35,666 nt of DNA from Thermoprotei archaeon (GTDB taxonomy: Archaea > Thermoproteota > Thermoprotei > Thermofilales > Thermofilaceae), in assembly GCA_003649495.1 (NCBI GenBank), contig QMRZ01000001.1, forward strand, positions 1 through 35,666. The letters run 5' to 3'. This document shows, piece by piece, positions 2,167 through 33,505 of the stretch. The first letter of the stretch is position 1, and every line of letters begins with the position of its first letter. Position numbers and translations under genes: made by a program. Below the pieces are notes generated by a model. It saw only the letters and a list, made by a program, of their open reading frames with translations, did not search any database and was not told the origin of the DNA.

Positions 2167-2217
2167 TCCTGAGGGAAAAGATTTTCCCTAAGTCATCTCT
2201 GGAGAAGGGGGGTTGAG

Positions 2218-2835: not shown

Positions 2836-2836
2836 A

Positions 2837-3112
2837 CTACCTACTCGAGCTAAGTGCGCGCCTTATATCATCCTCAGTGGCCTGCTTGACGATGTACCAT
2901 TCCGCCCGCCCCTTAACCCTCTCATGCTTGATGAAGCCGGCGTTCTCGAGCACCATCAGCGTGTGATGTAAGAGCGAGTAGCTAGTAGCTACATTCCTCT
3001 CTAAGACTATCTTCAGGAGATCGGGTGTGCTCATTCTCCCTCCCTGCTCCTCGAGTATCTTATAGACTTTCACCGCTCTCTCAATAACCTGGGGACTCCT
3101 AGGCCTAGGCAT
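2837..3112 (-). CDS. small winged-helix DNA-binding protein, family not recognised
   Basis: 91-aa basic ORF with an HTH-like core (MSTPDLLKIVLERNVATSYSLLHHTLMVLENAGFIKHE). An AT-rich promoter-like tract lies directly upstream. Confidence 0.5.
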   Translation of the reverse strand: MPRPRSPQVIERAVKVYKILEEQGGRMSTPDLLKIVLERNVATSYSLLHHTLMVLENAGFIKHERVKGRAEWYIVKQATEDDIRRALSSSR

Positions 3113-3128
3113 ACTCAGCCCCTATGCA

Positions 3129-3220: not shown

Positions 3221-5122
3221 TTATCCGCCCTCCTCCATCGCCCTCGCGAACTCTATGTACTTGGATAATAGCTCCTTGACACCATTAGCTGCTTCCACGG
3301 AGTAGCCGAAGGTCGCTAGGTACTTGCTTAGGTAGGGGTCTAGCACCCGCTCATCGAGTATCGCGACAGCAGCGTAGTCACGCTCAGACCTGACACTCCT
3401 GCCGATGGCCTGTGCGACTCTCACTGCTGCTGGGATCATGTACACCAGCCGCCATGCCGCATCGCTATCTCCTACTTTATACTTGAGGACCTCAACTAGC
3501 TGTCTGTTGAGCAGGTTCGGCTCAGGTACTGGCAAGCCCGCCAGCACTACCAGTCTAATCAGGCTAAGTCCATCAGACCTGAGCTCTATTCCCTCCACTA
3601 ACTTGCCCCATGCAACGCAGAGAACGAGGAGCTTCTCGTACCTCTGCGCAGCGGAGATTACGTCTTCAAGCTTGGTGTTCTCGCGCTCCATGAATAGTGG
3701 TCGTGCCCTCAGATAGGCCCTAATCGCCTTAGCCATGTCGTAGGAGGGGGCTACTACCAGGGCCACTCCCCGCCTTAAGTGCATATACAACTCGTCTATT
3801 ACATGCGCCATGAGGCCGTAGGTAGCGGCGCCACGCTCCACGTACCTGGATGACACTCCTTTCATCACCATCACCTTAACGCGCCTAGCCCAGGGCAGCG
3901 GTATTCTCAGCTCCCTTACGCGCCCTTCCTCTAGCCCGAGCATTGAGACCATGTAGTCGCGGGGAGGTAGCGTCCCGCTCATTAGAATGGCGCTCCTCAC
4001 TCCTTGGAAGACCGCGCCCGCCTCCCCTGCAGGTGACACACAGAGGTTCCTAAGCGCAACGTCTCCATCCATTGGTTCAGCCACTAAGGTGTAGCCAGGC
4101 TTGTGGCGGGCTACTGCCTTAAGGAAGGAGGCTACGCTGCGGATAGCAGTAGCTCGCCCTACCCTGCTCTCCACCACGGCGGCTATCCTCATTAGATCAT
4201 CGGGATTGGGGGCGACTTCTATCAGATCACCTCGCTCAACCTCTATCTCCCCCCTCCTCTCCACTGCTCTCCTCAGCTTAGACATGAAAGAGTATAGCGA
4301 GTACAGGTCTCTCTCCACCTTCTCGCATTCACCGCCTCTACAGTAGCGTGACACCTCCCGGCGTGCTGCCCTTACCCGGCGACTGGTAATCTCCTTACTT
4401 AACACACTTATTACGGCGCTGGGCAGGTTGTGTGCTTCATCAACTATGAGTAGAACTTCGCTTAAGCCTGTGCCCAAATCGCTGAGGAATGCGCGCCTGA
4501 TCTCTGGGTCGAAGATGTAGTTGTAGGCAGCTACTATCACGTCGGCTGTGCTGAGAGCGCGCCGTGCTAGCTCGTAGGGGCATGCCCCAGCTTCAGAGGC
4601 CCTCGCTAGCAGCTCTCGAGGGCTGAGCAGCCCTTCAAGGCTGACACTAACTTCCGAGGCGCGCCGGTGATAGGGGCAGAGCCCGCTTCTAACCAGCTCA
4701 CTGCAGAACCTGAGAAACTCGTCATATGGCAGCAGCTGTACTCCCCTAACTAGGCACAGATCCCTCTTGTTCTGGAGGAATACGGCGTCAAGCTGTATGC
4801 GCTTAGTGATGGTCTTAAGCTCCCTCAGAGGAGCCTGGAACTGGGTCCGCGCTCTAACCAGGTACACCACTTTGAAGCCCCCGCGAAGGCTAGCTGCGAG
4901 GGCCCCCGTAAGCGCTGCGGCAGTCTTGCCAGCGCCCGTCGGGTAGCCTACCATTAAGTGATTTCCCTCGAGTGCACTATCACGGACTGCCTCTGCTATC
5001 TCCCTCTGGCCAGCCCTCCAGCTATTGTAGGGCCATATATCCCCTATATCCACGTTAATCGATAACGAGTCTAGTCTCCTCTTTAATTGTTCGCAGCACG
5101 AACATGGTGCGGGTTGACTCAA
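3221..5122 (-). CDS. xpd: XPD/Rad3-family 5'-3' DNA helicase with a 4-Cys Fe-S domain
   Basis: Walker A GYPTGAGKT and DEAH box VDEAHNL. Four Cys lie between them (DLCLV, FCSELVRSGLCPY, GACPYE). The longest ORF overlaps the lrp-like gene by 68 nt. A GTG at 5053 sits 1 nt after the lrp stop and is the more likely start. Confidence 0.9.
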   Translation of the reverse strand: MSQPAPCSCCEQLKRRLDSLSINVDIGDIWPYNSWRAGQREIAEAVRDSALEGNHLMVGYPTGAGKTAAALTGALAASLRGGFKVVYLVRARTQFQAPLRELKTITKRIQLDAVFLQNKRDLCLVRGVQLLPYDEFLRFCSELVRSGLCPYHRRASEVSVSLEGLLSPRELLARASEAGACPYELARRALSTADVIVAAYNYIFDPEIRRAFLSDLGTGLSEVLLIVDEAHNLPSAVISVLSKEITSRRVRAARREVSRYCRGGECEKVERDLYSLYSFMSKLRRAVERRGEIEVERGDLIEVAPNPDDLMRIAAVVESRVGRATAIRSVASFLKAVARHKPGYTLVAEPMDGDVALRNLCVSPAGEAGAVFQGVRSAILMSGTLPPRDYMVSMLGLEEGRVRELRIPLPWARRVKVMVMKGVSSRYVERGAATYGLMAHVIDELYMHLRRGVALVVAPSYDMAKAIRAYLRARPLFMERENTKLEDVISAAQRYEKLLVLCVAWGKLVEGIELRSDGLSLIRLVVLAGLPVPEPNLLNRQLVEVLKYKVGDSDAAWRLVYMIPAAVRVAQAIGRSVRSERDYAAVAILDERVLDPYLSKYLATFGYSVEAANGVKELLSKYIEFARAMEEGG

Positions 5123-12282: not shown

Positions 12283-15018
12283 TCAGTGGGCTGAGCGGTG
12301 ACGAGTACCCGGCAAGGCCGAGGTGAGGGTAACTGGTGTAGCGCGCTCAACTACTGAGCCGGTAGCAGTCTTCCTGACTCGTAACACCACGTCAGCCGCC
12401 TCCTCAAGCTCGCTATCATGTGTAACCAGCACTAGTTGGGGGAACTCATTCCCCTTAGCTCCGAAGAGCCTCCTTATAGCGGTCACCAGCCTCCTCCTCC
12501 TAACATCGTCTAGATGCACTGTAGGCTCGTCGAGCAGCATTACGCCTACCCGCCCTCCTGAGAGGGCTTTGGCTATGGCGAGTCTCAGCGCTAGGGCTAG
12601 CGCCACCTTCTCGCCTCCACTGACGGTGTCCACAGACCTAGCGCCCTCACTGTCCACCACTAACACCTCATAATCGTCGTTCAGCTTCACATCAAGCAGG
12701 TCTAGCTCGAACAGCGATGCGAAGGCACGCAAGTGTCTCTCTACCAGAGGCCTAGCCCTCGCTCTAAGTTCCCTCTGAAGCCCATCCTTGCTTATCAACA
12801 CTCTAATCCTTCTCAGGAGTTCTATGAAGCGCTCCAGCTCCCGCACCCTAGCTCTCCTCGACTCAAGCTCCCTCAGCTCCTTCTTCAGCCTCTCCACCTC
12901 CCCTCTGATGTTCTTTAAACGTTCGTAGAGGAGCTCTAGCTCACGCTTAGCGGCCTGAGCCCTCCCTATAAGCTCGCTCTTTCTCTCCTCTAGCTCACTG
13001 ACCTCCTCCTCCAGTTTCCCAAGCCTCTCACGCTCCTTCTCGAGCGATGCTAGCTGGCTTTTAGCTTCACGCAGCTTCTCCTCGAGCTCCGCCAAGGCTC
13101 CTCTAAGCTCGTTTACGCTCGAGGCAATGCGCCTCAGCAACTCCACCTTGCCCTTAGCCTCCCTCACGAGCTTCACAGCCTCCTCTGGATCTCCAAACTT
13201 GCCTAGCACGCTGGCCAGCTCGCGCCTCCTCTCCTCAAGTGCCGTCACCCTGCTCCTGAAGGCTTTTAACCTCTCCTCAAGCTCCTTTACTCGCTTAGCG
13301 TGCTCAGCGAGCCTGGCCCACTCTATCCTGAGCTCCTCAAGCTCCCTAAGCCTACGCTCTATAGCGTGGCGCGAGGGCTCTGTGACCCCTAGGGCCTGGA
13401 GCTCTGGGGTGAGCCTCCTCAGCTCCTCCACGAGCCCAGCTCTCTCCCGCGAGATGCGCTCTATCTTCTCAGCGAGCACGCGCATCTTAGCTGGATCGAG
13501 CCTGGAGGCAGTCTTCATCTTGGCCTCAACCCCTTCTAGCTCTCGACTCAGCTCCTCCTCCTTCTCGTTAAGTGCCCTGGCGCGTAGGTGTAGCTCCTCT
13601 AGGCTCTCACTGTAGAGCCTCAGGAGCGCCTCCTTTCTCTCTACAGGGAGGGGAGATCCGCATAGCGGGCATCTATCACCAGCTTTCTCGAGCTCCGCTC
13701 TCCACCTCTCCAGCTGAGCTATTAAGGCGTCCACCCTCCTTGCCTCGCTCCTCAAAGCCTCTAGCTTGCGCCTAAGCTCCTCCCCTCTCCTCTCGAGCTC
13801 CTCCTGTAGAGCAGATACCTCGTCGGCAGCCTCCTTGAGGTTGACTCGCCTCCCTACTACAAGGCTGCACTCCTCAAGAAGGGCCTTAGCTTGCTCCTCA
13901 AGGCTTTTAAGCTCAGTCGCCTTAGCTGTGTACTGAAGGGTTAGCTCCTCGAACTTCCTCTTCACTTGTAAAAGCCTTCGGTAGGCCTCATCGACCCATG
14001 AGAGCTTTAAGGCTCTCTCAGAAGCTTCCCTAGCCCTCCTCAGCTCAAGCTCGAGCTCCTCAACCCGCTGTAGCTCTACCTCAAGGCTGCTCATTAAGCT
14101 CGCGTACTCCTCTGCCACGCGCTCCAGCTTGAGTAGGTCCTCAACTACCGCTAGCTCCCTCTTAGCGGCCTGCGCCTGAGAGAGTAGTTCGCTGAGCTCC
14201 CTCCGCTTAGCCTCTAGGCTCTGGACCCGCTCGGAGAGTATGGCTGCCCTCCTCTTAATCTCCTCAAGCTTCCTAACCGCCTCCATGCGGCTCTTAAGCT
14301 TCTCTCCAACCTCCTTGAGCTCTCTGAGCGTACGCTGATACGAGCGTTCAACCTCGGCTATCTTACGCTTAATCTCCCTTTCCTCATAGGCCAGGCGCTC
14401 CAGCTCCTCCCTAACTCTCTCAGCGCCAGCCAGCTCCGCCCTCTCCCTCTCCAACTTTAGCTCGAACTGCTTTATCAGGAGGGCCATGGCGCTATACGCC
14501 TTCTCGAGCTCCTCCACACCCAGGAGCTTGGATATCAGCTGTTTCCTCTGGTAAGGGTCGACGTCTAGGAGGCGCGATATCTCGCCCTGCCTCACGTATA
14601 CTGCTGTCAGGAACATCTGCCTGTCCATCCCCAGAATCCTCCTAACCTCTCTATCGACTTGTGTAGGGGAGTAGGCCAGTAGCTTCCTGCTATCCCCATC
14701 TAGGGCGTAGAGCCTGGCGTCGCTAACTGCCCTCCCCCTGGCTCTACGTCTTATCTCCCTCTCCACCAGGAATCTGCGACCGCTTACCTCAAACTCTAGC
14801 CTAACTAATGCCCGGGACGCGCCACGCCTGATGAGTGAGTGTAGGCCGCCTCTGCCAGCCTCCCTGTACAGGGCGAAGCATATTGCGTCCAGTAGCGAGC
14901 TTTTGCCAGCTCCATTCTCCCCGACAATGGCTATAGAGCCCTCGGGAAATTCTATGTGTGTCCTCCTGTATGATAGGAAATCCTCCAGCTCGAGGCGCCT
15001 GATGATCATAGCTTCCAC
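12283..15018 (-). CDS. rad50: Rad50 DNA double-strand-break repair ATPase
   Basis: 911 aa. N-terminal Walker A GENGAGKSS. Long heptad coiled coil with the zinc hook GDRCPLCGSP (about 13652-13680). Signature SGGEKVALALALRLA and Walker B VMLLDEPTVHLD. Confidence 0.95.
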   Translation of the reverse strand: MEAMIIRRLELEDFLSYRRTHIEFPEGSIAIVGENGAGKSSLLDAICFALYREAGRGGLHSLIRRGASRALVRLEFEVSGRRFLVEREIRRRARGRAVSDARLYALDGDSRKLLAYSPTQVDREVRRILGMDRQMFLTAVYVRQGEISRLLDVDPYQRKQLISKLLGVEELEKAYSAMALLIKQFELKLERERAELAGAERVREELERLAYEEREIKRKIAEVERSYQRTLRELKEVGEKLKSRMEAVRKLEEIKRRAAILSERVQSLEAKRRELSELLSQAQAAKRELAVVEDLLKLERVAEEYASLMSSLEVELQRVEELELELRRAREASERALKLSWVDEAYRRLLQVKRKFEELTLQYTAKATELKSLEEQAKALLEECSLVVGRRVNLKEAADEVSALQEELERRGEELRRKLEALRSEARRVDALIAQLERWRAELEKAGDRCPLCGSPLPVERKEALLRLYSESLEELHLRARALNEKEEELSRELEGVEAKMKTASRLDPAKMRVLAEKIERISRERAGLVEELRRLTPELQALGVTEPSRHAIERRLRELEELRIEWARLAEHAKRVKELEERLKAFRSRVTALEERRRELASVLGKFGDPEEAVKLVREAKGKVELLRRIASSVNELRGALAELEEKLREAKSQLASLEKERERLGKLEEEVSELEERKSELIGRAQAAKRELELLYERLKNIRGEVERLKKELRELESRRARVRELERFIELLRRIRVLISKDGLQRELRARARPLVERHLRAFASLFELDLLDVKLNDDYEVLVVDSEGARSVDTVSGGEKVALALALRLAIAKALSGGRVGVMLLDEPTVHLDDVRRRRLVTAIRRLFGAKGNEFPQLVLVTHDSELEEAADVVLRVRKTATGSVVERATPVTLTSALPGTRHRSAH

Positions 15019-16157
15019 CTCTTCCAGACACCCTCCTCGAATACCCTCTCGGCCTCCTTCACTGCCTCCTTAAAGCTCTCTTCATCACCTCTGCTTAGAA
15101 GCTCCACCAGTGTCCGAACGAAGGAGTACAGCGAGGGATCCTTGAGTCTTTCTCTCAAGAGGTCGTCGATGGATAAGCTCTCGATGGTCTCCACAGTCTC
15201 GCTCTCACCTTCTTCGATAAGGTGAATACGCACGTGTAGCGAGTAACTGGCCAGCGCTCTGGCGAGGAGCTTCTCGACACGCCCCCTCTCCACTCCGCTC
15301 CCCCTTACTTTGAGGTGTACTAATGGCTTTCTGCCGCTAAGCCTCCTCACCTCAGCTAGTATGTGAGCTCTCTGCCTCTCAAGATCCTCATACCTAACCT
15401 CGTACACCAGCTGAGGCCTCACCGACTCGAGCTTAATGAAGTGGAGTATGGGCTCATCCCCGGATAGATCGACTATGTAAAAGCCCCTCTCACTGCTCCT
15501 AATTACCTCTTGGACGTCAAGGTACTCTATTGAGCCAGGATAAGCCACGACCAGCCCCTCACGCTTAATGACGTAGGGATGGTGGAGGTGGCCCATGGCG
15601 TAGTAGTGGAAGCCGCGCGGCAGCTCACTTAAGCTGAGTTCGCTTATCATGGGGTGGGCCTCTCTGAGCGCCTGGTGCAGGAGTAAGATCCTCTTCCCAC
15701 TTCTCCTGGCGGCCTCAGCCTCGATCTTCGCTAACCGTCTCAGGAGGTCGCCCCTGAAGGTGGCTGGGATATATTCCAGCCCAGCTATGCAGAGCCCGTC
15801 TGCCTCTACGACGGGCTGGTTGCGGCTCAGCATCACGAGCCCTAGGTAGTCGAAGAGCACTAAGGGAGTTAACCCTCGCCTCCTAAGCATGTCGTGGCCG
15901 CCTGGGACGGCGTAGAACTTGACGCCAGCGCCATGCAGCTTCTTGAGTTCTTCCTGGAAGACCTTGAGTGCCCTTATTGGGGGCCGTGGGCTGTGAAACA
16001 CATCACCGCTGTGCAGCACAATTCTCACGTGTTCCTCAAGTATCCTGTCTACCGCCTCTCTGAAGCACTCGTATACGTCCAGCTCCCGTTCCTCAAGGCC
16101 GTACTGGGACGCCCCCAGGTGGGTATCGGCTAGGTGTGCGATTAGCATGGTTACCAC
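15006..16157 (-). CDS. mre11: Mre11 nuclease
   Basis: Phosphoesterase motifs IAHLADTHLG, HSGDVFH, GGHD and MGHLHH. Overlaps herA by 7 nt and rad50 by 13 nt. Confidence 0.95.
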   Translation of the reverse strand: MVTMLIAHLADTHLGASQYGLEERELDVYECFREAVDRILEEHVRIVLHSGDVFHSPRPPIRALKVFQEELKKLHGAGVKFYAVPGGHDMLRRRGLTPLVLFDYLGLVMLSRNQPVVEADGLCIAGLEYIPATFRGDLLRRLAKIEAEAARRSGKRILLLHQALREAHPMISELSLSELPRGFHYYAMGHLHHPYVIKREGLVVAYPGSIEYLDVQEVIRSSERGFYIVDLSGDEPILHFIKLESVRPQLVYEVRYEDLERQRAHILAEVRRLSGRKPLVHLKVRGSGVERGRVEKLLARALASYSLHVRIHLIEEGESETVETIESLSIDDLLRERLKDPSLYSFVRTLVELLSRGDEESFKEAVKEAERVFEEGVWKRWKL

Positions 16158-17650
16158 CCTTCTCTCAAGTAGTCCAATTCTGGCTCTGGGTTTAGCGCCT
16201 TAGCCCACTCCGCGAGCACATCCAGGTCTTCGCCGAGCCTCCTTCCCCTGAATCTGTCTATCTTAACGAGGGCGGGCACCTTGATCATGGGGCCTATGAC
16301 TACGGCCTCTCCCACGTTGAGTGATGAGAGCTGCTCGAGCAGGTCCTCGCTCAGGAGCTCACTGGCCTGCTGCACATACCTCTGATCGCTGGGCTCCACC
16401 AGGCGGAGGATTATCATGTTGTTGGCTTGGGATAGTGCGTCGGAGTCTAAGGCCTTAGGCCTCTGGCTGACTAGGCACAGCCCTATCCCGAACTTGCGCC
16501 CTTCCCTAGCTATCCTCCCTATCCAGTACTTGGAGAGGGTGTCCCTCCCCCGCGGGGCCAGTATGTGTGCTTCCTCAAGCACCGTGAGCAGGGGGTAGGG
16601 CAAGCCCCCGCCACCCTGGAAGTAGCGCTTCCTAGCCTCCAGCACGCTGCGCAGAGTGTGGCTGACTACCACGTCAGCCATCTCCTCGTCTAGGCGCCCC
16701 AGGTCAATGACGTTCACGGCCCCAACCCTGATCTGGCTGGTGATGGGCGGGGCCAGGGGATCGAGGAGCTCTGAGTACCTCTCCTCAAACGCTTCCATCT
16801 TGTTAAGTACTGCCATTACACTCTCCCTATCCCTCTTGGGTCTTCGCCCCTCTCCCATCTCCTCGAGCATTTCCTCCAGCTTCCTTCTGATGTAGTACAG
16901 GAACTTCTCAGGCGGTATGGCGGAGCTGTAGACCTTATTTCTGGCTTCCCTAAGTGCCTCCCTGAAATATCTCTCCTGGACGTAGGCCTTAGCATCTATG
17001 TTTAACAGCTTGAGTAGCTCAGAGGCATGCATGTACACTGGGTTAAGCTTAGCTGCTACCTGGTTCAGCTTGACTGAGAACTCAGCGGAGGAATACTCGG
17101 AGTGCATGTCGAATATGAGGACGCAGCCTCCCCTCTCAACTATCCTCTCAGCTATCACCGCTACCGTGTTAGACTTGCCAGCGCCCGTGACGGCTAGAAT
17201 CGCCAGGTGCCTGGATACCAGTCTATTGACATCGACGTAGACTGGGATATTGGGCTCTGAGAGGAGGACGCCTATCCTTATCCCCCTGCCGTCATCACCA
17301 AATATCCTGGATAACACCTCCTGGTCGGCTCGGAGGAGCTCAGTGCCCGGGGGCGGAGGGGTACGGGGTAGCTCGAGGGTTTCTACATCCCCCACTATCT
17401 TGACCTCTCCCTTGAGGTAGCTCGTGGAGCTCCTATCCAGCTCCCTAAGCCTCTCAACGATTAGGGGGTCGTGTACGTCCTCTGTTAGCGACACGCTACC
17501 CCTAACTAGCGCCTTGACGAGCCCGAGTACTCGCCGCCCGTCGTACTCTAGTACCACGTATTGCCCCACCCTAGGGGTAGCCTTAGAGATGAAGGTGGCG
17601 CGTGTTATCGTGGCCTCTCCTATTGTGTAGCCTATCACCTCCCGCCCCAT
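16151..17650 (-). CDS. herA: HerA hexameric DNA helicase/translocase (FtsK-HerA superfamily)
   Basis: 499 aa. N-terminal HAS-barrel-like region, Walker A LAVTGAGKSNT, and LTVLEEAH. Position is between nurA and mre11. Confidence 0.9.
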   Translation of the reverse strand: MGREVIGYTIGEATITRATFISKATPRVGQYVVLEYDGRRVLGLVKALVRGSVSLTEDVHDPLIVERLRELDRSSTSYLKGEVKIVGDVETLELPRTPPPPGTELLRADQEVLSRIFGDDGRGIRIGVLLSEPNIPVYVDVNRLVSRHLAILAVTGAGKSNTVAVIAERIVERGGCVLIFDMHSEYSSAEFSVKLNQVAAKLNPVYMHASELLKLLNIDAKAYVQERYFREALREARNKVYSSAIPPEKFLYYIRRKLEEMLEEMGEGRRPKRDRESVMAVLNKMEAFEERYSELLDPLAPPITSQIRVGAVNVIDLGRLDEEMADVVVSHTLRSVLEARKRYFQGGGGLPYPLLTVLEEAHILAPRGRDTLSKYWIGRIAREGRKFGIGLCLVSQRPKALDSDALSQANNMIILRLVEPSDQRYVQQASELLSEDLLEQLSSLNVGEAVVIGPMIKVPALVKIDRFRGRRLGEDLDVLAEWAKALNPEPELDYLREGW

Positions 17651-18690
17651 GCCTCCAGCACCTCTCTCCCAGTTCTCATGCCGTAGAGGCCCAGTATTCT
17701 GGCAAGGCTCTCCATGTCCCTATTGCTTATCACGACATCCCTATGGGCCTTGGCCATGAAGTAGGGGTAGCCTCCGACGCTGTACCTCGATAAGCATTTC
17801 AGGATTGACGGTAGGTCTTCTTTCCTCGTGGTCTCAAGCCTAAGCACGGGCCCTCCCCTCTCCAGCCTCACGTATGCCACAGTCAACTTCAGCCCCCGGA
17901 AGAACTCCCAGTAAGCGGGGAGGCTCCCCTTCAACCTAGCGAGGGCAACTTCCCCTCCGGGCGCATAGCCAGGACCTCGCGTATAATGCTCATAGAGCGC
18001 GACGTCAGGCAGGCCGCCCGCAAGCCCGTGTGCCTCGGACTGCTTAGCTATCGCCGCCACCTCTCCCTCCTGCTCCCTGAGCACCTCGTACATCAGGGTG
18101 AGGTACTCCAAGTACTCCACAGCCAATGCCTCCTCCCTCACTTCTCTTCTCTCCTCCACCATCTCCTCTACGATCTCCTTTGAAGCCACGCATAGCTCCC
18201 CTCTCTTAACGCTATCCAGAATGCGCTCATGTGCGCTTGTATCAAGGTACTTGATGTGGGCAGCGCCACCGTACTTCCACGGGCGTACTAGCATGCTGAT
18301 GAGAGAGCCGTCTAGTACAACTACACAACCCTTAAGGTCTCTCAGGGCCTTAAGCGCGAGCCGTAGCTCAAGAATGCTCATGTAGAGTCTAATTCGCTCC
18401 TCGGGCAACCAGTACGGAATTAATATGTCCACATCAGCGGCTCTTCTACACACCTCTACCCTGCCGTGCCTAGCTAGGACGCTCTCAGCGGCAACCGCAT
18501 ACAGCGCGTAGCCCCTATACAGTATCATGTTTCGGCTGCCATCTACGCCTACGAAAAGATAATCATTGTTGTCCACATCGTTGAATGAATGCCACGTTAT
18601 CCCCGGTGGTGACCTGTCTCTCAGCCTCCTCATCTTAGCTAGCAGCTCCTCCCTTCTCCTCAGCGCTGTGTCGACAACCTCAACCAACAT
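17635..18690 (-). CDS. nurA: NurA 5'-3' nuclease
   Basis: 351 aa. FVGVDGS is a motif-I-type catalytic Asp. Size and operon context with herA fit NurA. Confidence 0.85.
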   Translation of the reverse strand: MLVEVVDTALRRREELLAKMRRLRDRSPPGITWHSFNDVDNNDYLFVGVDGSRNMILYRGYALYAVAAESVLARHGRVEVCRRAADVDILIPYWLPEERIRLYMSILELRLALKALRDLKGCVVVLDGSLISMLVRPWKYGGAAHIKYLDTSAHERILDSVKRGELCVASKEIVEEMVEERREVREEALAVEYLEYLTLMYEVLREQEGEVAAIAKQSEAHGLAGGLPDVALYEHYTRGPGYAPGGEVALARLKGSLPAYWEFFRGLKLTVAYVRLERGGPVLRLETTRKEDLPSILKCLSRYSVGGYPYFMAKAHRDVVISNRDMESLARILGLYGMRTGREVLEAWGGR

Positions 18691-23802: not shown

Positions 23803-24765
23803 TCACTTAGCGTCCTCGACCCCCCTGTCAGTTATCAGGAACTTGGCGGAGGCGCCTCTCGCTATCCTTGGGGAGTCGATGCACTCTATCACCCAGGAGT
23901 CGCCACTCCTCCTCAGCAGAAACCTGTGAGTTGAGGCGTGAGCTATTATGTTCCCACCTGCGGGTAGCTTCAGTGCAGCGCCCCACGGCACGGGTTGAGT
24001 TAGGACCTGGTTGGTTATCGCTACAGCCATGTTGTAGCGCCTTGCATATCTCTTCAGCCAGTCCAGCAGGTAGTTAATCCTCTGCTGCCTCGCCGCTAGC
24101 ATCTCACGGCCCTTGAACTCTGCCCTGTACAGCGCTATGATCGAGTCTACTATGAGCAGCCTAGCGCCCTCCCTGATAATGCGGGGGAACTCCTCTATCA
24201 CTATCTCCTCCAGCTCATCTACGTTTAACGGCCTCACGACATAGACGTTCTCCAGAGGGTTCTCTACTCCAAACCTCTTGGCCATCGCCTCTATCCTGCT
24301 TGGGCTGAAGGTCCCCTCAGTATCTATGAACACGGCTCCTCCCCCCAGCCCACCCTTGCCAGGGGGCAGCTGGACAGTCACGGCGAGCTGGTGGCAGAGC
24401 TGTGTCTTGCCGCTGCCAAACTCGCCCGCAAACTCGTAGACATCCCACACGTACATGCCGCCACCTAATAGCTCGTCGATCGCCCTAACCCCTGTCGTAA
24501 ACATGTCGCGTGTATCCAGCATCTTGGCGTACTCAGTGCCCCTAAACGCGCGCCTGGCGCCCTCACGGCTTCGCACAAGCCTGCGCGCGGCCCTGACGAT
24601 GAGCATGGCCTTCTCAACATCAATCCCGGCTCTGTCCGCTAACTCCTCCGGGTTGAAGAGCGCTATGTCCTCGACGTACTCAGCCACTCTAGCTACCTTC
24701 TCGAGGGTCAGCTTGCCTACCCCGCTCACCTTCCACTCTCTAACAGGCGTTAACTCTTCGCTCAT
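23803..24765 (-). CDS. radA: RadA recombinase (Rad51/RecA homologue)
   Basis: 320 aa. N-terminal HhH-like domain, Walker A EFAGEFGSGKTQLCHQL, Walker B LLIVDSIIALYR, and NQV...GGNIIAHAST. Confidence 0.95.
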   Translation of the reverse strand: MSEELTPVREWKVSGVGKLTLEKVARVAEYVEDIALFNPEELADRAGIDVEKAMLIVRAARRLVRSREGARRAFRGTEYAKMLDTRDMFTTGVRAIDELLGGGMYVWDVYEFAGEFGSGKTQLCHQLAVTVQLPPGKGGLGGGAVFIDTEGTFSPSRIEAMAKRFGVENPLENVYVVRPLNVDELEEIVIEEFPRIIREGARLLIVDSIIALYRAEFKGREMLAARQQRINYLLDWLKRYARRYNMAVAITNQVLTQPVPWGAALKLPAGGNIIAHASTHRFLLRRSGDSWVIECIDSPRIARGASAKFLITDRGVEDAK

Positions 24766-25328
24766 CTTACCACCACGGGCTGGCCATCAACTAGTAGTAG
24801 CGAGACCCCCTTCTTGTCGTAAACTCTTAATATCGTGTGTAGCCAGCTCCACATGCCTAGTAGCTTAGCCGCGCCCGTGACTACAAAGGGAACTCTATAG
24901 ACGCTGGCAACTCTCTCCATTATGTCGAGCGCATAAAGAATACCTTCATCCACGTGCCTGGTGAACCTCTCATCGAGCTCTTCTACAAGTACTGGAGCTC
25001 TCTCAGCCTCTAATCGCCTGGGCAACTCGACTAATAGGTCCCAGAGGAACTCCTCATCTAAGCGGGCTCTAGGCTTGATAGGCTCTGGCGATAACTCGAA
25101 CTCTACCCCCGACGCTAGCGTGAGGCCGGGTGATATGAGGAGCCTACCGCCAGGATAGCTGAGCTCAGCGTAGAGGGGGTGTAAGAGGATTATGTGGCTT
25201 TCAGCCATCGTTAAGAGCTGTGTCGCTCTCTCAGCTCCCACCCACTGCTCTAGCTCCTCACGCCTCAGGCACTTTAAGTGGGTCAGCGACATCAGCAGCC
25301 TGCCCACCTGTAGGTACTTCGGCCTCAT
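24762..25328 (-). CDS. hypothetical protein, candidate degenerate RecA/KaiC-fold paralogue lacking the P-loop lysine
   Basis: 188 aa. GGRLLISPGLTLASGV sits where RadA/RadB/KaiC proteins carry G..G.ihG.pGsGKT. It is followed by a Walker-B-like APVLVEELDERF and a strand VPFVVTG. ATGA overlaps occur at both ends. Confidence 0.5.
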   Translation of the reverse strand: MRPKYLQVGRLLMSLTHLKCLRREELEQWVGAERATQLLTMAESHIILLHPLYAELSYPGGRLLISPGLTLASGVEFELSPEPIKPRARLDEEFLWDLLVELPRRLEAERAPVLVEELDERFTRHVDEGILYALDIMERVASVYRVPFVVTGAAKLLGMWSWLHTILRVYDKKGVSLLLVDGQPVVVR

Positions 25329-25693
25329 GCCCTCCCCCTCTCTCCTATCACTTTAAGCCAAGGGTTGCCGACTAGCCACTCGGGCAAGCCTCCCGCTTCC
25401 AGCTTGATGCGTTGAGGCTGGCTGACCTTAGCCTCGACAGGCTCCTCTCTCTCCTTGCCTAGCCTCAGCTCCCATAGCGCCTCAAGGAGCTTCCCGTAGA
25501 CGCGCTGCCCTTTAGCCGTTAGCCTGACAACCTTCAGCCTCCCATACTCCTCCACCTTAACAAGCCCCAACGCCTCTAGCTGAGAGACTACACTCTTAGC
25601 TCTCCTAGAATTCCTGTTGATATCGGATATCTTGACTCCATCGCCTATCCTGTACACCCAGTACAGCACGTTAAATTCGTTGAACTTTCTCAC
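25325..25693 (-). CDS. winged-helix (MarR/TrmB-like) DNA-binding protein
   Basis: 122 aa. ISDINRNSRRAKSVVSQLEALGLVKVEEYGRLKVVRLTAKGQRVY is a wHTH with a wing. GTG start. Confidence 0.6.
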   Translation of the reverse strand: MRKFNEFNVLYWVYRIGDGVKISDINRNSRRAKSVVSQLEALGLVKVEEYGRLKVVRLTAKGQRVYGKLLEALWELRLGKEREEPVEAKVSQPQRIKLEAGGLPEWLVGNPWLKVIGERGRA

Positions 25694-25711: not shown

Positions 25712-25721
25712 AAATATTTAA
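25712..25721 (-). promoter_or_regulatory. TATA-like box for the wHTH / paralogue / radA unit (leaderless spacing)
   Basis: The minus strand reads TTAAATATTT, centred about 23 nt upstream of the GTG at 25693. Confidence 0.45.
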
Positions 25722-27055: not shown

Positions 27056-28573
27056 TTAACTCTTAGCTGAGGAGAGCTTGCGGGCCAGGCTTAGTGCCTC
27101 CTCCAGCATCCTCTCGATACGCGCGTCTTCACTGGGACTTGTTACGGCTGGACTGCGAACAAGCTTCAGGGAGAGGGAGCATAGCCTTTTAAGCCTCCTC
27201 CACCTAGCTCCCTGCTCGGGAAACAGTGTAGCTCTCCTCTTCACTTCGTACCTAAGCACGCCCAAGTTTAGCTCAACTAAGTTTGAGGGGAGCAGGCCCA
27301 TGCTTATTAGCAGGCTTGAGGAAAGCTCGAGTAGCCCCCTCACGATTAGCTCCTTCCTTTCTCCGCAGTCCACGGACCTCACGGCTGTTGAGAGCGTGCT
27401 AATGGCAGCTTGTTCATACTTAAGTGCCAGCCCGCCCGCGTCCGTAGAGGAGAGCTCAGCCCAGGCGCTAGAGACTCGGGGCGCCAGCTCCCTAGCTACT
27501 CTGTGCAGCTCATCCTCCTCGATTATCCACGCCTCAGCCCCCCAGGGCGTCCACGATAGCCTGCTCCTCAGGTCCTCGGCTATTAGCTCGGAGTGTAGCT
27601 TCACCAACTTGGATGGGGGCCTTAGTCCCCGCTCCTCCAGGGTATTGCGCGAGATGATCCTCAACGTGCTCCACGACAATTGTCTTAGGCCTTTTCCTGA
27701 CCTCACGTATGCCCTCTCGAGCGCGTAGACGTAGTTGACAAACTTTATAGCACTAGCTGTGGAGGGCTCGAGCTCCTCCAGGAGACTACACGTCATGGAG
27801 ACTAAAGCGCGCTTTGAAATGTACTCCCTTCCCTTGAGGGCTTCGAGTATGGAAGGGACGACTCTCGATACCACGCGATGAGGTATCCCAGCCCTGTACA
27901 GTGAGCGCGCGAGCTTATCAGCGCTGAACTCCTCTACTCCCCCATCCTCGTTGACCACCTTTAGGCGTGAGGGTTCTATACCCGGTGTGGACATTCTCAG
28001 GGATGGGATCAGCACGTCGAGGATCCTTATAGCCTCCCTGCTGAGGAGTCTATCTCCAGGGCTTATGAGCCCCTGAGCCTTTAGCCTCTCGAGAGCCGCC
28101 TTGACATCGCGGGGGTGTAGGCCTAGGAACGATAGAGTGATTAGTACACGCTCCTCATCGCCGTTGAGGATGTGATAGGATAGCAGGACTAGTGCCTCCA
28201 CAGCGCTTAGGCCAGCGTAGCCTTTACAGTGCTTGACAGCCCTGAGCAGGAAGCCTAGCGTAATCGTACTAGGCAGCACGCTCTTAACTTTTATGAAGTG
28301 TTGCCCTCTCCTCGAGAGCTGTGCCTTCTCGATGGGGCAGGCTAAGTGTCTCGCTAGGGCTTTCTCGAGCACTGCAACAGCCTCATCAAGGGGCAGCTCT
28401 CCAGTTCTAACGTGTATTAGTAGTAACCCACTCGTATCTTCATATTCCCAATTCTCTATGAGCGCGCCCCGCTCACTGAGCTCGTGAGCAGCCTCGTTTA
28501 GGGCCAGACTTAGAGTTGCGCCTGGGGCATGGCCAGCCTTAATCCTGTATCCGACTAGGTAATCCTCTGCCAT
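27056..28573 (-). CDS. ATP-cone domain protein with unrecognised flanking domains
   Basis: 505 aa. Residues about 203-285 (27719-27967), LKVVNEDGGVEEFSADKLARSLYRAGIPHRVVSRVVPSILEAL...ISKRALVSMTCSLLEEL...AIKFVNY, fit the ATP-cone pattern. A wHTH-like segment (ALERLKAQGLISPGDRLLSREA) lies upstream. No P-loop anywhere. Confidence 0.65.
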   Translation of the reverse strand: MAEDYLVGYRIKAGHAPGATLSLALNEAAHELSERGALIENWEYEDTSGLLLIHVRTGELPLDEAVAVLEKALARHLACPIEKAQLSRRGQHFIKVKSVLPSTITLGFLLRAVKHCKGYAGLSAVEALVLLSYHILNGDEERVLITLSFLGLHPRDVKAALERLKAQGLISPGDRLLSREAIRILDVLIPSLRMSTPGIEPSRLKVVNEDGGVEEFSADKLARSLYRAGIPHRVVSRVVPSILEALKGREYISKRALVSMTCSLLEELEPSTASAIKFVNYVYALERAYVRSGKGLRQLSWSTLRIISRNTLEERGLRPPSKLVKLHSELIAEDLRSRLSWTPWGAEAWIIEEDELHRVARELAPRVSSAWAELSSTDAGGLALKYEQAAISTLSTAVRSVDCGERKELIVRGLLELSSSLLISMGLLPSNLVELNLGVLRYEVKRRATLFPEQGARWRRLKRLCSLSLKLVRSPAVTSPSEDARIERMLEEALSLARKLSSAKS

Positions 28574-28607: not shown

Positions 28608-29444
28608 TCACATGAAGTACAGGACTACCTCCTTATACTCTCTATCCAAGGATACCGGCGCCTTAAGCAGCACGGGTCTTCTCTGCCGTAACACTTCGCC
28701 TAGTAGCTCAGGGTCTACGTGCTCCCTCGCTAGGAGCTTAAGGGGTACATTAACGCCTAGGGGGCGAGCTGGCACCATATGCCTAGTGCTCTTCGGGGGC
28801 AGTAAGACGCCGCTCCGGGCTATCTCCAGGATCTCGCGCTTAAGTGGCGTGGGAGGCAGCACTAAAATCCCCTCTCCTCCTTGGAGTGCTGAGTCGCCAG
28901 GCACATAGGTTGGCCCCTTCCCCAAAAGGCTAGTTAGCCGCTCCTCCAGCTCTCGAAGCTTAGCGTAAGCGTCGGTGAGCTCTGCGTATTCTATCCTATA
29001 AGCCTCGCCAGCGTGTATCACGGCTAAATCCCTCTTTCCCACCTCCTCCGGCTTCACAGGCTCGGAGCTGAATCCTTTAAGCAATGAACTCAGCTCACAG
29101 CTTCCCTCCACCCTATACCTCCTGGCCCACCTGTCTAGGAGCACTAGAGGGTTGGAGTAGTCGACCTCGCAGACAGTTATCCACTTGTAACCCAAGGCCT
29201 TCATTGCAGCCCACCTGTGCGTGCCATCAAGTATCACGCCGCTTGTTGCATCCACTATTATCGGGTTTCGCTGGTAGATGCTCCTCCTGAAAGCTGCCTT
29301 AAGCTCCTCCAGGTAGCTAGGTACGACCTCCTCGTGAGGTCGCAGCTCCTCAATTCTACGCACAGTCACGGTGAGCTCGAGTTCGCGCGTGCCCACAGAT
29401 ACTCTGAGCCTCAGCTCGGACACGAGGGTAAGCCGCGTGGACAC
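28608..29444 (-). CDS. ParB/Srx-fold protein; possible free-serine-kinase (SerK)-like enzyme
   Basis: 278 aa. LRPHEEVV...PIIVDATSGVILDGTHRWAAMKALGY is the ParB N-terminal / sulfiredoxin-type motif. The C-terminal LLPPKSTRHMVP resembles what I recall of archaeal SerK. The GTG at 29444 leaves only 11 nt to the divergent gene, so a downstream GTG start is likely. Confidence 0.55.
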   Translation of the reverse strand: MSTRLTLVSELRLRVSVGTRELELTVTVRRIEELRPHEEVVPSYLEELKAAFRRSIYQRNPIIVDATSGVILDGTHRWAAMKALGYKWITVCEVDYSNPLVLLDRWARRYRVEGSCELSSLLKGFSSEPVKPEEVGKRDLAVIHAGEAYRIEYAELTDAYAKLRELEERLTSLLGKGPTYVPGDSALQGGEGILVLPPTPLKREILEIARSGVLLPPKSTRHMVPARPLGVNVPLKLLAREHVDPELLGEVLRQRRPVLLKAPVSLDREYKEVVLYFM

Positions 29445-30025: not shown

Positions 30026-31249
30026 ATGTCGTACGGCGGTTCATGGCTACCGAGTTCCAAGATCTTCCGCGATGAAAGCAAGCTTCAGATAGATTATGTA
30101 CCGCGCAACCTGCCTCATAGAGAGGAGCAGATACGCAGGCTGAGGGACTACTTCAGGCCTTTCCTGATGAACCCGGGCTCCATATTCGTTAGGGTAATAC
30201 TACTGGGGGGCGTGGGGACTGGGAAGACTGCCGTTGCCAGGAGGTTTGGCGAGGATATAGACGGGCTTAGGGCTAGGGGCGGGGCAGTTATCAGGTTCTC
30301 ATACGTTAACTGCCACGCTCACAGGACTCTGTTCTCCATTATGCAGAAGATGGGGAGGGATCTAGGCCTCAGCATTCCCCGGAGAGGATTCTCACGAGAG
30401 GAGCTCATGCACCTCCTCTGGAACCACCTCAGGAGCAGTAACGAGTACCTCGTGGCCGCGATTGATGAGGCGGACTACTTGGCCCGTACACGCGATGGAG
30501 AGGCCCTATACGACCTCACTAGGATCTCTGAAGTTGTTGGCGATAAGCTCCATAGGGCTGGCTTCATATTCATATTCAGGGATCTCTCTTTTCTAGTCAC
30601 GCTGGACAGGTCTATCCAGAGCACGCTCCAACACAATATCATAAAGTTCCACCCATATACTGCTTCCCAGCTGGTGGACATCTTGTGGATGAGAGTCGAG
30701 GAGGGTGCGGTATACGAGTCCGCGGTGGACGACACTGTGATGGAAATGATAGGGGAGCTGGTGGGCTACGACAAGGGCGGGCCTGGCGATGCTAGGCTGG
30801 CTCTGGAGCTTCTCTACAGGGCTGGCAAGTATGCAGAGGAGGAGGGCAGGGACGTAATCCTCCCCGAGGATGTAAGGAAGGCTTACAGTGACGTAGTGCC
30901 CATTCCTCGCGATGTGTTGGCGAACTTAAGGCTCGGCGAGAAGCTATTGTTACTGGCTCTCACGCGGCTCCTACAGAGGAAGAAGTTCGTGAGCAAAGTT
31001 CCAATGGGTCTCTTAGAGCTGGAGTACAACGAGGTGTGTGAGGAGTTCGGTGTCAAGCCTAGACGCCACACGACGGTGTGGGAGTACGTCAGGAACCTGC
31101 ATAGAATGGGTGTAATCTCGGCGGAGAAGTCGCGGAGGGGGCAGAGAGGTAGGACGACTCTAGTGGGCCTATCTGCCGTCCCCCTACAGACACTCGAGAG
31201 GGAGCTCATAAAGATGATTAAGGAGGATATCAGGCGCGGGCTCTCCTAG
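30026..31249 (+). CDS. cdc6: Orc1/Cdc6 replication initiator
   Basis: 407 aa. DYVPRNLPHREEQ, Walker A LLGGVGTGKTA, Walker B AIDEADYL, and a C-terminal winged helix (VWEYVRNLHRMGVI). Confidence 0.95.
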   Translation: MSYGGSWLPSSKIFRDESKLQIDYVPRNLPHREEQIRRLRDYFRPFLMNPGSIFVRVILLGGVGTGKTAVARRFGEDIDGLRARGGAVIRFSYVNCHAHRTLFSIMQKMGRDLGLSIPRRGFSREELMHLLWNHLRSSNEYLVAAIDEADYLARTRDGEALYDLTRISEVVGDKLHRAGFIFIFRDLSFLVTLDRSIQSTLQHNIIKFHPYTASQLVDILWMRVEEGAVYESAVDDTVMEMIGELVGYDKGGPGDARLALELLYRAGKYAEEEGRDVILPEDVRKAYSDVVPIPRDVLANLRLGEKLLLLALTRLLQRKKFVSKVPMGLLELEYNEVCEEFGVKPRRHTTVWEYVRNLHRMGVISAEKSRRGQRGRTTLVGLSAVPLQTLERELIKMIKEDIRRGLS

Positions 31250-32507
31250 CCCTCGCCGAGGGCCGCACTGTATGCACGTGGAGCCCGAGGGCCTTTGCGA
31301 ACTTCGACTCGGATATCCCTAAGCCCTTAAGTAGCTTCCTCCCAGCCTGGGGGTTCTCCTCGTATATCAACTTAAGGAACGGGAGGATTTCCGTCAGAGC
31401 CTTCCTAGCAGATGTGTGGCATGTCTTAGCAATGACTCTAGCTATCCTCATCCTCTCATCCCTCTGCTCCTTAGTAGCTGAGAGGGCCCTCAGCTTGTAG
31501 GGGAAACTGTACTTGACGAACTTAAAGGGGGGCTTCTCTCTCGCGCTAGCCACGCCAGCGGTCATAAGGTCGAGCGCGTAGGGAAGGAGAGTCCAGGCCT
31601 GTCTCCTCTTAATCCTGCCCAGCATCATGTCGGCTCTCGAGAGAGCGTCGTAGGCGTCCGCTATTGCTACGATGCTCGGCGAGTACTGGTACGGTATGTT
31701 CTCGTTGAGCCACTGCATCAGCATCTCATAGTCTAGGGATGGCATACTAAGCACAGCTTTAGCGGCCTCCGGGCGCTTAGCCGTGAGCACCTGCCTCACT
31801 ACCTCAAACATGTTCATCTGCCTGGCCCTATAGCCGAGCACCTCCAGGTCCTCAAGGGTCACCCTGCGCCTACCCATCGCGATTGATTGTAGATCATTGA
31901 TCGCGGCTCTCAGATCTCCCTCGCAGTTCCCAGCTATGGCTCTCAGCACAGAGTAGTCGCACTCTATCCCCTCCCGCCTGCAGATCTCCCTGAGCGCCCT
32001 CACCACGTCCCTGATCCCCAGCTTCCTGAACTCTATTAGCTTACACATAGATCTGAGCTGTCTCAGCCTGGGATCCCAGGGGTCATTAGCTGTGAGAACC
32101 ACTGGATACTGAGACGCCTTAATGATCTCCATTATCATGTCGAGCCCCCCTCTATCCTCTCTAGGGCTTACGCCGTCCACCTCGTCTAGCAGTATTATTT
32201 TGCCTCTAGCCCCGAAGAGCGAGCCCTCGGTAGCGGATCTAAGCACCCTCCTCCTGAGAGCCTCTGATGTCCTCACATCACTAGCGTTAGCCTCTATTAG
32301 CTCCAGCCCTAACTGGTGAGCGGCTGCGTGGACTAGGCTGGTTTTGCCGCAGCCAGGCGGACCGTAGAGGAGGGCGGCCTTCTTCTCAGGCCTACCGGCT
32401 AGCCACTTATTGAGCCATGCTACAAAGGCCTTTTTAGCCTCAGGATTACCTACTACCTCGTCTATCCTCTTGGGTCTATACTTCTCTGTCCAAGGCACTA
32501 TGCTCAT
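31230..32507 (-). CDS. rfcL: replication factor C large subunit
   Basis: WTEKYRPKRIDEVVGN, GPPGCGKTS, ILLDEVDG. The basic C-terminal tail ARARRARA is a position where a PIP-like tail would be expected. ATGA overlap with rfcS. Confidence 0.9.
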   Translation of the reverse strand: MSIVPWTEKYRPKRIDEVVGNPEAKKAFVAWLNKWLAGRPEKKAALLYGPPGCGKTSLVHAAAHQLGLELIEANASDVRTSEALRRRVLRSATEGSLFGARGKIILLDEVDGVSPREDRGGLDMIMEIIKASQYPVVLTANDPWDPRLRQLRSMCKLIEFRKLGIRDVVRALREICRREGIECDYSVLRAIAGNCEGDLRAAINDLQSIAMGRRRVTLEDLEVLGYRARQMNMFEVVRQVLTAKRPEAAKAVLSMPSLDYEMLMQWLNENIPYQYSPSIVAIADAYDALSRADMMLGRIKRRQAWTLLPYALDLMTAGVASAREKPPFKFVKYSFPYKLRALSATKEQRDERMRIARVIAKTCHTSARKALTEILPFLKLIYEENPQAGRKLLKGLGISESKFAKALGLHVHTVRPSARARRARA

Positions 32508-33505
32508 GCTCGGCCCCTCTTAGCTCCTATTAGTGCCATCTTGGCTAACAGCGCGTTTAGCTGGATCTCATCGTCAGCGCCCTCAACTATCCTGTAATTC
32601 AGCTCACCTAGCAACTCAACGAGTTCAAGCCTAGTTCTCTCGTCGAGGTCCAGGCCGCTCCTGGCCGAGGTCACTTCCCTGTACACAAGCTTTATTACGT
32701 CGACTCCTGAGAGGCCATAAGAGTAGAGTAGTGCCCTGAGCTTCTCCCGAGCCGCTAAGAAGTTGCCTCCCAGCGCGAGTTTTATCATATCCCTGATCTC
32801 GGTAGGAGTGACCTTGCCTAGAGCCTTGTAGACCGTGTCGGCGTCGACTACCTCGCCTATGGCGGCAGCTGCCTGAAGGGCATTTATCGCCTTCCTCATA
32901 TCGCCCATGCTCTCCTCCCATATCGCCTCGAGCCCGTCCTCAGTCACCTTGACGCCCTCACTCTCAGCTATGTACCTGAGCCTAGCAATGAAGTCCTCCT
33001 TCGGTATAGGCTGGAACCTAAATATCGCGCATCTCGACTGTATCGGCTCTATAATCTTCGACGCGTAATTCGCTATCAGTATGAAGCGTGCAGTCCTGGA
33101 GTATAGCTCCATGGTTCTCCGCAGCGCTTGCTGAGCATCACCGGTCATGTTATCGGCCTCGTCAAGTATTATCAGCTTGAAGGGAACCTCGCTGAGCGGA
33201 ACGGTCCTAGCGTACTCCTTTATCCTGGTCCTGATGACATCGATCCCTCGCTCATCCGAAGCGTTGAGCTCCAAGGTGTTATCACGCCACTTCTCGCCGT
33301 ACAGTTCATAGGCGAGGCATAATGCTGCCGTCGTCTTCCCCGTGCCGGGAGGGCCGACGAAGAGGAGATGTGGCACATTCTTCTCTCTGACGAACTCCTT
33401 CAGTCTCTCGACTATCTCCCTCTGGTCCACCATCTCATCTAGCCTCCTCGGCCTGTACTTCTCAACCCACAACTCCAGCGAGTACCGCTCACTCATCGCC
33501 TCCAC
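32504..33505 (-). CDS. rfcS: replication factor C small subunit
   Basis: WVEKYRPRRLDEMV, GPPGTGKTT, ILDEADNMT, and the SRC motif QSRCAIFRF. Confidence 0.95.
   Translation of the reverse strand: MEAMSERYSLELWVEKYRPRRLDEMVDQREIVERLKEFVREKNVPHLLFVGPPGTGKTTAALCLAYELYGEKWRDNTLELNASDERGIDVIRTRIKEYARTVPLSEVPFKLIILDEADNMTGDAQQALRRTMELYSRTARFILIANYASKIIEPIQSRCAIFRFQPIPKEDFIARLRYIAESEGVKVTEDGLEAIWEESMGDMRKAINALQAAAAIGEVVDADTVYKALGKVTPTEIRDMIKLALGGNFLAAREKLRALLYSYGLSGVDVIKLVYREVTSARSGLDLDERTRLELVELLGELNYRIVEGADDEIQLNALLAKMALIGAKRGRA

Follow-up and report, generated by a model that had tools for sequence, protein, structure and literature searches.

A degenerate RadA-like protein and a winged-helix protein with an arcadin-2-type tail are encoded together with radA in Thermofilaceae and may form a recombination mediator module

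A stretch of 35,666 nucleotides from a Thermoprotei archaeon of the Thermofilaceae (assembly GCA_003649495.1, contig QMRZ01000001.1, positions 1 to 35,666), referred to here as the window, carries on its minus strand three consecutive genes that end with the gene for the recombinase RadA and might encode a module that mediates or regulates the action of RadA. Gene 1 (25325-25693; open reading frame (ORF) 25693..25325) starts with GTG and codes for 122 amino acyl residues, gene 2 (24762-25328) starts with ATG and codes for 188 residues, and gene 3, radA (23803-24765), starts with ATG and codes for 320 residues. ATGA stop/start overlaps join gene 1 to gene 2 (25325-25328) and gene 2 to radA (24762-24765). 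This arrangement had been described in an earlier reading made from the DNA letters only (the sequence-only reading), and the list of ORFs and the sequence both agree with it; the string GGRLLISPGLTLASGV, which it quoted from the middle protein, maps to 25104-25151 as it had said. The TATA box that it had pointed out, TTAAATATTT (25712-25721, minus strand), is present 19-28 nt 5' of the GTG of gene 1, inside the 58-nt gap separating apgM from gene 1, where the GC content falls locally to 0.42. A relaxed TATA pattern matches at six sites in the whole 35.7-kb window, none of them within the trio. The TATA-like box is a candidate promoter, and its spacing would be compatible with a leaderless transcript. 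In two related loci, the start of the gene 1 homolog overlaps the apgM stop by 4 nt (L002, 4669-4672; L003, 1951-1954), so that a separate TATA box does not belong to the conserved features of the module.

Judged by its motifs, gene 3 codes for a complete RadA recombinase. It matches the Pfam family Rad51 (3e-64), scores 268.7 with the NCBIfam RadA equivalog NF003301 (cut-off 259), and aligns over its full length with RadA of S. solfataricus (2bke; 202 bits). With the older TIGR02236 model it scores 252, under the cut-off of 361, which suggests a somewhat divergent RadA. On the minus strand, an N-terminal helix-hairpin-helix (HhH) domain (24577-24729), the Walker A motif GEFGSGKT (24403-24426), the Walker B motif LLIVDS (24142-24159), and the L1 (24082-24126) and L2 (23935-24012) loops are encoded.

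The protein encoded by gene 2 is, as far as sequence searches go, not a member of any described family. It finds no match in Pfam (including Rad51, RecA, KaiC, and AAA_25), in NCBIfam (including RadA, RadB, and KaiC_arch), or among PDB sequences, and searches with PADLOC and PHROGs were empty as well, so that an origin from a defense system or a phage is unsupported. Its structure was predicted with AlphaFold2 from an alignment of nine sequences, and the best model reaches a mean predicted local distance difference test score (pLDDT) of 92.7 and a predicted template modeling score of 0.89. When this model was compared with the PDB by Foldseek, RadA, RAD51, or DMC1 accounted for 44 of the 50 top matches, the rest being EttA, MutS2, and KaiC, with probabilities of about 1.0 and E-values from 7e-4. 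The template modeling score (TM-score), normalized to the query, is 0.5-0.59 against full-length RAD51 filaments and 0.3-0.39 against isolated ATPase domains, and the higher score with the full-length proteins indicates that the N-terminal part of the gene 2 protein aligns as well. The sequence-only reading had seen in the middle protein the strand and loop layout of a RecA/KaiC core; the RecA-like fold is borne out by the model, whereas the restriction to a core is not, since a remnant of the N-terminal HhH domain is also present.

Comparison of sequences points weakly in the same direction. A hidden Markov model (HMM) of the gene 2 family, run against 588 ORFs from the window and the first related loci, matches, outside of the family itself, only RadA proteins, and it does so in two colinear segments. 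Residues 11-47 of gene 2 correspond to RadA residues 26-65, that is, to the second HhH, and residues 128-151 correspond to RadA residues 227-250, the helix that precedes beta-4. An alignment of 26 gene 2 sequences with 20 RadA sequences by hhalign is likewise colinear, covering residues 7-183 of gene 2 and 23-299 of RadA (P 1.9e-4). Another protein, P0033, a cysteine-rich repeat protein of 1160 residues, matches the gene 2 profile with an E-value of 9e-14 through 12 short repeats and was set aside as spurious, having the look of a compositional false positive. As a whole, the structural evidence for an ancestry of gene 2 in RadA is good, and the sequence evidence suggests it weakly and would by itself be insufficient.

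The alignments and the model allow one to say which parts of RadA seem to be kept and which lost (all coordinates on the minus strand). The remnant of the second HhH comprises residues 14-43 (SLTHLKCLRREELEQWVG..; 25200-25289), in accord with the family HMM and hhalign. At the place of beta-1, P-loop, and helix A of RadA, a beta-meander is predicted (residues 54-79; 25092-25169) from the secondary structure of the model and the gaps of the hhalign alignment, in which a beta-meander region of about 47 residues takes the place of about 117 residues of RadA; the stretch lost contains the polymerization motif, beta-1, the P-loop, helix A, and beta-2. The best-conserved core (residues 91-152; 24873-25058) aligns with RadA residues 178-252 and consists of a helix, a Walker-B-like strand (PVLVEELD), a shortened L1 (ERFTRH), a long helix, and beta-4 (VPFVVTG). 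The residues P103, R110, F122, G129, Y132, and R139, which are invariant across the family, belong to this core. The sequence-only reading had taken APVLVEELD for the Walker-B strand and VPFVVTG for beta-4, in agreement with the hhalign alignment, in which Glu116 occupies the position of the Walker-B aspartate and both DNA-binding loops, L1 and L2, are cut down. The missing Walker A GK[ST], which had been noticed in the single protein, holds for the family, as none of the 26 members possesses the motif G....GK[ST], compared with all 20 of the neighboring RadAs. With its P-loop gone and the two DNA-binding loops lost as well, the gene 2 protein is predicted to be unable to hydrolyze ATP or to exchange strands, and the retained HhH remnant marks it as a degenerate copy of a full-length RadA and not of the core alone. 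Most likely, therefore, gene 2 encodes a RadA duplicate that has lost catalysis and DNA binding by its loops but has kept its scaffold, as modeled here.

An order of small gene, middle gene, and radA is found again and again, in about 18 distinct loci from Thermofilaceae and related Thermoprotei, including members with just 25-31% identity, and such recurrence means that the arrangement is not due to chance. Relatives of gene 2 number nine in an index of 5.8 billion proteins, and 18 representative clusters were obtained when 1.84 billion proteins were searched exhaustively by HMM; all named relatives are from Thermoprotei (Infirmifilum, Thermofilaceae, Thermofilum sp., and uncultured metagenome-assembled genomes). 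The loci with the trio are L001, from the complete genome of Infirmifilum lucidum (CP062310), L002/L003/L017, L004, L005, L008, L009, L010/L085, L011, L013, L015, L021, L026, L052, and L114. The sequence-only reading had named, among the outcomes that would speak against its proposal, the lack of a RecA/KaiC-like fold and the absence of the arrangement from related genomes; neither was observed. Wherever enough flanking sequence is available, gene 2 is preceded by a gene 1 homolog coding for 104-134 residues and accompanied by a radA gene. In L012 and L130, radA and the gene 1/gene 2 pair have divergent transcription, and the linkage with radA thus outlasts an inversion. Genes 1 and 2 overlap by 4 nt in most loci, and where gene 2 meets radA, the relatives range between an overlap of 23 nt and a gap of 37 nt. 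The ratio of nonsynonymous to synonymous substitution rates (dN/dS), taken from the pair with the least saturation (L002-L015), amounts to 0.19 in gene 2, 0.13 in radA, and 0.42 in gene 1, values that are indicative only as dS is near saturation (about 1). From these ratios, purifying selection appears to act on gene 2.

Gene 1, which has eight close homologs besides the syntenic orthologs in the trio loci, is predicted to encode a DNA-binding winged helix, a disordered linker, and a conserved C-terminal peptide. The winged helix-turn-helix domain (residues 1-80; 25454-25693, minus strand) is modeled by AlphaFold2 with a pLDDT of 70-86 and shows three helices, a hairpin, and a further helix. 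In Foldseek it matches AF1382, MarR-family repressors, Sso10a-2, and the centromere-binding protein AspA of pNOB8 with a probability of 1.0 and E-values from 3e-4, in agreement with the fold that the sequence-only reading had assigned to the 122-residue protein; Pfam winged-helix models match weakly and below their cut-offs. The linker (about residues 81-103; 25388-25453, minus strand) is predicted to be disordered (pLDDT < 50) and varies in length and sequence among orthologs. The last 20 residues (25328-25387, minus strand) form helices of low confidence in the model and follow the consensus [LVM]P.[FWY]L..NPW[LI].[VI][LI]..RG[RK], in which P, N, P, W, R, and G do not vary among carriers linked to radA. 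The sequence-only reading had called gene 1 a dedicated DNA-binding subunit; the winged helix fits this description, and the tail, which had been missed and which is of the arcadin-2 type as argued below, changes the probable identity of that subunit.

Carriers of the tail were sought with a degenerate DNA pattern in a metagenome collection. At least 120 loci matched, compared with none among the 2.9 million contigs of a viral collection, which speaks for the specificity of the pattern. Among the matches listed, the motif is encoded in 118 of 120 loci, lies not more than 10 residues from the C-terminus in about 90 of them, and is carried mainly by a family of proteins of 200-260 residues without a Pfam match. 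Of these carriers of arcadin-2 size, again among the matches listed, 46 of 53 are encoded directly 3' of an actin homolog of about 423 residues (Pfam Actin, 5e-17), and in six of the other seven cases the upstream sequence is too short to judge. After the actin-adjacent carriers come a protein of about 100 residues and sometimes a SMC/Rad50-like protein of about 800 residues. Contigs with a protein labeled as from Thermofilum pendens encode an actin of 426 residues, the protein P0082 of 210 residues, which ends with GLPDFVKDNPWLVVLSKRGVKT, a protein of 70 residues, and a SMC-like protein of 798 residues. This order of actin, tail carrier, small protein, and SMC-like protein is that of the published arcade cluster of crenactin, arcadin-2, the small arcadin-3, and the Rad50-like arcadin-4.

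In arcadin-2, a conserved C-terminus sits behind an unstructured linker (PMC5173319), and a peptide comprising R187-R203 binds crenactin at its hydrophobic groove through a tryptophan (Izore et al. 2016, PMC5173319). Full-length arcadin-2 binds crenactin with a Kd of about 31 nM, its C-terminal residues being the sole interacting region, the peptide depolymerizes crenactin filaments, and the authors likened this mode of binding to that of ParR on ParM (PMC5173319). An HMM built from actin-adjacent tails only gives 16.7-48 bits with the proteins linked to radA, 21.7 bits with gene 1 of the window, and 7.4 bits with the best unrelated ORF among the 588; this test is partly circular, as the search pattern came from radA-linked tails, and the actin synteny is the independent evidence. 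Judged by its sequence, the tail of gene 1 is of the same type as the arcadin-2-like C-terminal peptide, and the peptide proposed as a crenactin ligand is LPEWLVGNPWLKVIGERGRA. Neither the tail nor the core of arcadin-2 has a Pfam family, literature text searches for the tail motif found nothing, and the tail profile has no match among the sequences of the PDB, for which the peptide chain, at 17 residues, falls short of the minimal length. One weak match to the tail HMM next to a trio (L015, 99-725) was considered as a possible arcadin-2 and rejected, as it is the C-terminal part of a conserved protein of 505 residues.

Gene 1 resembles arcadin-2 in its build, with a folded domain, an unstructured linker, and a short conserved C-terminal helix with an invariant tryptophan. 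However, its N-terminal domain is a winged helix unrelated to the alignment of the arcadin-2 core, and it adjoins radA, whereas the arcadin-2 gene directly follows that for crenactin. In view of the different domain and neighborhood, gene 1 does not encode an arcadin-2, and it is the tail alone that is shared. By analogy, gene 1 might be compared with ParR of the ParMRC system, which combines a DNA-binding domain with a C-terminal peptide for the groove of an actin-like protein, a combination that is predicted here. ParR differs in being a ribbon-helix-helix protein that binds to centromere repeats; upstream of gene 1, no repeat is obvious on reading the 58-nt gap, for which no repeat search was run. 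The MarR/PadR-like proteins AF1382, Sso10a-2, and AspA of pNOB8 share the fold of residues 1-80, but at only 17-25% identity, and none of them has the tail.

The tail also occurs on other proteins. In L019 and L020, from Guaymas Thermoprotei metagenome-assembled genomes that lack gene 2, it ends a C2H2 zinc-finger protein encoded two genes downstream of radA. Such tailed zinc-finger proteins downstream of radA, in loci without the dead paralog, are located at 4161-4508 in L019/L020, at 5647-6042 in L081, and at 1464-1913 in L035; in L081, the order is RadA, a Roadblock/LC7-like protein (130 residues), a protein of 160 residues, the zinc-finger protein with the tail, and a P-loop ATPase (214 residues). 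In the set L021-L140, the tail furthermore ends coiled-coil proteins of the ribbon-helix-helix (CopG-like) type and many short proteins that do not adjoin actin (for example L083 4988-5347, L079 5547-5906, L107 2814-3287, and L072 477-1664), and these look like DNA adaptors for crenactin in the style of ParR. The other tail carriers each precede a different overlapping partner gene, coding for arcadin-3, a P-loop ATPase, or a coiled-coil protein, which fits with tail proteins that link assorted partners to crenactin. In L027, L080, and L117, the actin/arcadin-2 pair faces, in convergent orientation, a RadA-like gene that is more distant (292 bits with the local RadA profile; in L080, positions 1229-1864 and 2154-3122), an adjacency that may be coincidental.

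With regard to gene 2, other RecA-superfamily proteins of archaea, RadB, aRadC/KaiC-like, and the Rad55-like proteins of Sulfolobus, are thought to help RadA and would resemble it in this respect. RadB, aRadC, and Rad55-like proteins keep Walker A and B and are not known to possess the RadA N-terminal domain. Gene 2, in contrast, lacks Walker A and possesses an N-terminal remnant. By analogy, its closest counterparts would be the ATPase-dead Rad51 paralogs of the eukaryotic Shu complex (Csm2, Psy3, and Shu1 with the SWIM protein Shu2/SWS1), which like gene 2 have a RecA/Rad51-like core without a working P-loop and which act beside the recombinase and not as one, a role to which that of gene 2 may be likened. 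There is no detectable sequence relationship between gene 2 and the Shu paralogs, and gene 2 differs from them by its N-terminal HhH remnant and by its fixed place in one operon together with radA and a winged-helix adaptor. Seven related loci encode, near the radA module, a protein of 108-162 residues with the motif CxC-x14-17-C[ST]Hx[AG]A (L007 361-807; L011 2106-2531; L012 2519-2941, minus strand; L021 7145-7582; L114 3641-4129, minus strand; L019/L020 3851-4177), which by pattern agrees with the refined SWIM signature CxC..CxHxxA of the Shu2/SWS1 type (PMC6316741). The Pfam SWIM model does not match these SWIM-like neighbors, and the window contains no SWIM-like gene.

We consider it about an even chance (probability roughly 0.5) that the trio encodes a module which mediates or regulates RadA and which has a link to DNA and probably one to crenactin. 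Translational coupling would provide the adaptor encoded by gene 1 and the dead paralog encoded by gene 2 in a fixed proportion, and the two might form a complex. The gene 2 protein might contact RadA, as ATPase-dead Rad51 paralogs of eukaryotes do with their recombinase, and might help to nucleate, stabilize, or cap RadA filaments. The winged helix of gene 1 would take the complex to DNA and its tail would enter the hydrophobic groove of crenactin, a contact that could tie RadA-dependent repair to the actin-like cytoskeleton by tethering or by a local sequestering of crenactin monomers. A wider proposal is put forward more tentatively and is rather less likely to be correct. According to it, adaptors with arcadin-2 tails physically couple RadA recombination to the actin-like cytoskeleton in archaea that possess crenactin, and the tail would be the hallmark of DNA-binding adaptors of crenactin, a family with winged-helix, ribbon-helix-helix, or C2H2 zinc-finger domains.

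Several observations weigh against a RadA mediator coupled to crenactin. Only the two best of the five gene 2 models are confident (pLDDT 92.7 and 81.4, then about 45), the hhalign probability for gene 2 and RadA is just 47.5% and drops to 6.9% with shallow profiles, and a search of 1.84 billion representatives with the gene 2 profile retrieved no RadA at E < 0.001. Equating the tail with the crystallized arcadin-2 peptide of Pyrobaculum calidifontis is a strong inference from synteny, size, and the published description. No actin gene is present in the window or adjoins any trio, and no paper linking crenactin to RadA was found in the literature searched. Also, gene 1 and the larger part of gene 2 are missing from a close Thermofilaceae relative (L016), and both genes are frameshifted in L014 (2045-3007), so that either the module is dispensable or these assemblies are faulty. 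What is left of gene 2 in L016 (2813-2995) is a C-terminal remnant of 60 residues that is still joined to radA by ATGA.

As an alternative, the winged-helix protein might be a transcription factor of the radA operon, the gene 2 protein a decoy that caps or poisons RadA filaments, and the tail a device modulating the regulator. The nearest folds of the winged helix are indeed MarR-type repressors, gene 1 comes first behind the sole promoter-like box, and a paralog without ATPase or DNA-binding loops could stop filament growth. Yet, no operator-like repeat is seen when the sequence of the promoter gap is read, the promoter context is not conserved, given the overlap of gene 1 with apgM in L002/L003, and the tail also occurs on unrelated DNA-binding domains that adjoin radA, for which a common partner is a better explanation than regulation specific to one operon. 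We regard such a regulator with its decoy as unlikely, although it comes closest to the mediator module.

Less probable still is that genes 1 and 2 merely neighbor radA and constitute a ParR-like pair that positions DNA in connection with crenactin and has no role in recombination, the gene 2 protein having a generic alpha/beta fold. The variety of overlapping partners of the other tail proteins would fit with this, as would the fact that the similarity between gene 2 and RadA stays under database-wide significance. A generic fold, however, would hardly explain why nearly all Foldseek matches are RadA, RAD51, or DMC1, N-terminal domain included, or why gene 2 contains two colinear RadA-like sequence segments, and a mere neighbor would not be expected to stay linked to radA in every locus with enough sequence, even after an inversion.

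It is also conceivable, at slightly lower odds, that the tail binds another partner in this context, RadA itself or some other common factor, and that the match to arcadin-2 reflects the reuse of a general motif. Tail carriers are found beside radA in three architectures, a winged-helix protein with the middle gene, a C2H2 protein after a SWIM-like gene, and a C2H2 protein after Roadblock/c11, and no crenactin gene lies near these radA-linked carriers. On the other hand, crenactin is the only experimentally known partner of the arcadin-2 C-terminal region (PMC5173319), the 46 of 53 carriers of arcadin-2 size are linked to actin and not to radA, and the arcade cluster is present in the Thermofilum lineage. 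Finally, that gene 2 is a functionless, decaying remnant of a tandem radA duplication, as the loss of every catalytic motif and its deletion in L016 or frameshifting in L014 might suggest, is very improbable for an intact ORF of constant length with invariant residues across a family reaching 22-31% identity, a dN/dS of about 0.19 (with dS near saturation), and a confidently predicted compact fold.

Elsewhere, the window encodes an operon for NurA, HerA, Mre11, and Rad50 (12283-18690, minus strand) as well as an XPD-like helicase, Orc1/Cdc6, and RFC subunits (3221-5122, minus strand, and 30026-33505), which our analysis recorded as lying within 12 kb of the trio. With these repair and replication genes nearby, the trio is located in a region rich in both functions, possibly near a replication origin. 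Upstream of apgM, conserved proteins of 505 (27056-28573, minus strand) and 278 residues (28608-29444, minus strand) are encoded, to which no function was assigned; their genes are syntenic in L002 and L004, and the 505-residue protein has merely weak ATP-cone and helix-turn-helix matches. In I. lucidum and others, a gene for a protein of 160-184 residues overlaps the end of radA (L001 7486-7980; L021 9907-10458; L130 1988-2542; L026 4840-5349). Weak Cas4-like matches (PADLOC, E 3e-4) and a D..EVK motif suggest that this protein may be a PD-(D/E)xK nuclease. The window lacks the corresponding gene 3' of radA and has an ABC transporter there instead.

Archaeal recombination mediators are little understood, and to our knowledge all RadA paralogs described keep their ATPase. 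A conserved, operon-fixed, ATPase-dead copy of RadA would be the first protein in archaea to correspond to the inactive Rad51 paralogs of eukaryotes, and the presence of the trio in the cultivated I. lucidum makes direct testing possible. The arcadin-2-type tail provides a concrete hypothesis connecting recombination with an archaeal actin, and the wider set of DNA-binding tail carriers suggests a role of crenactin beyond cell shape. If this is true, crenactin would move or position DNA, including broken DNA in its search for homology, and the system would be an archaeal counterpart of ParMRC and of the part that nuclear actin plays in double-strand-break repair in eukaryotes.

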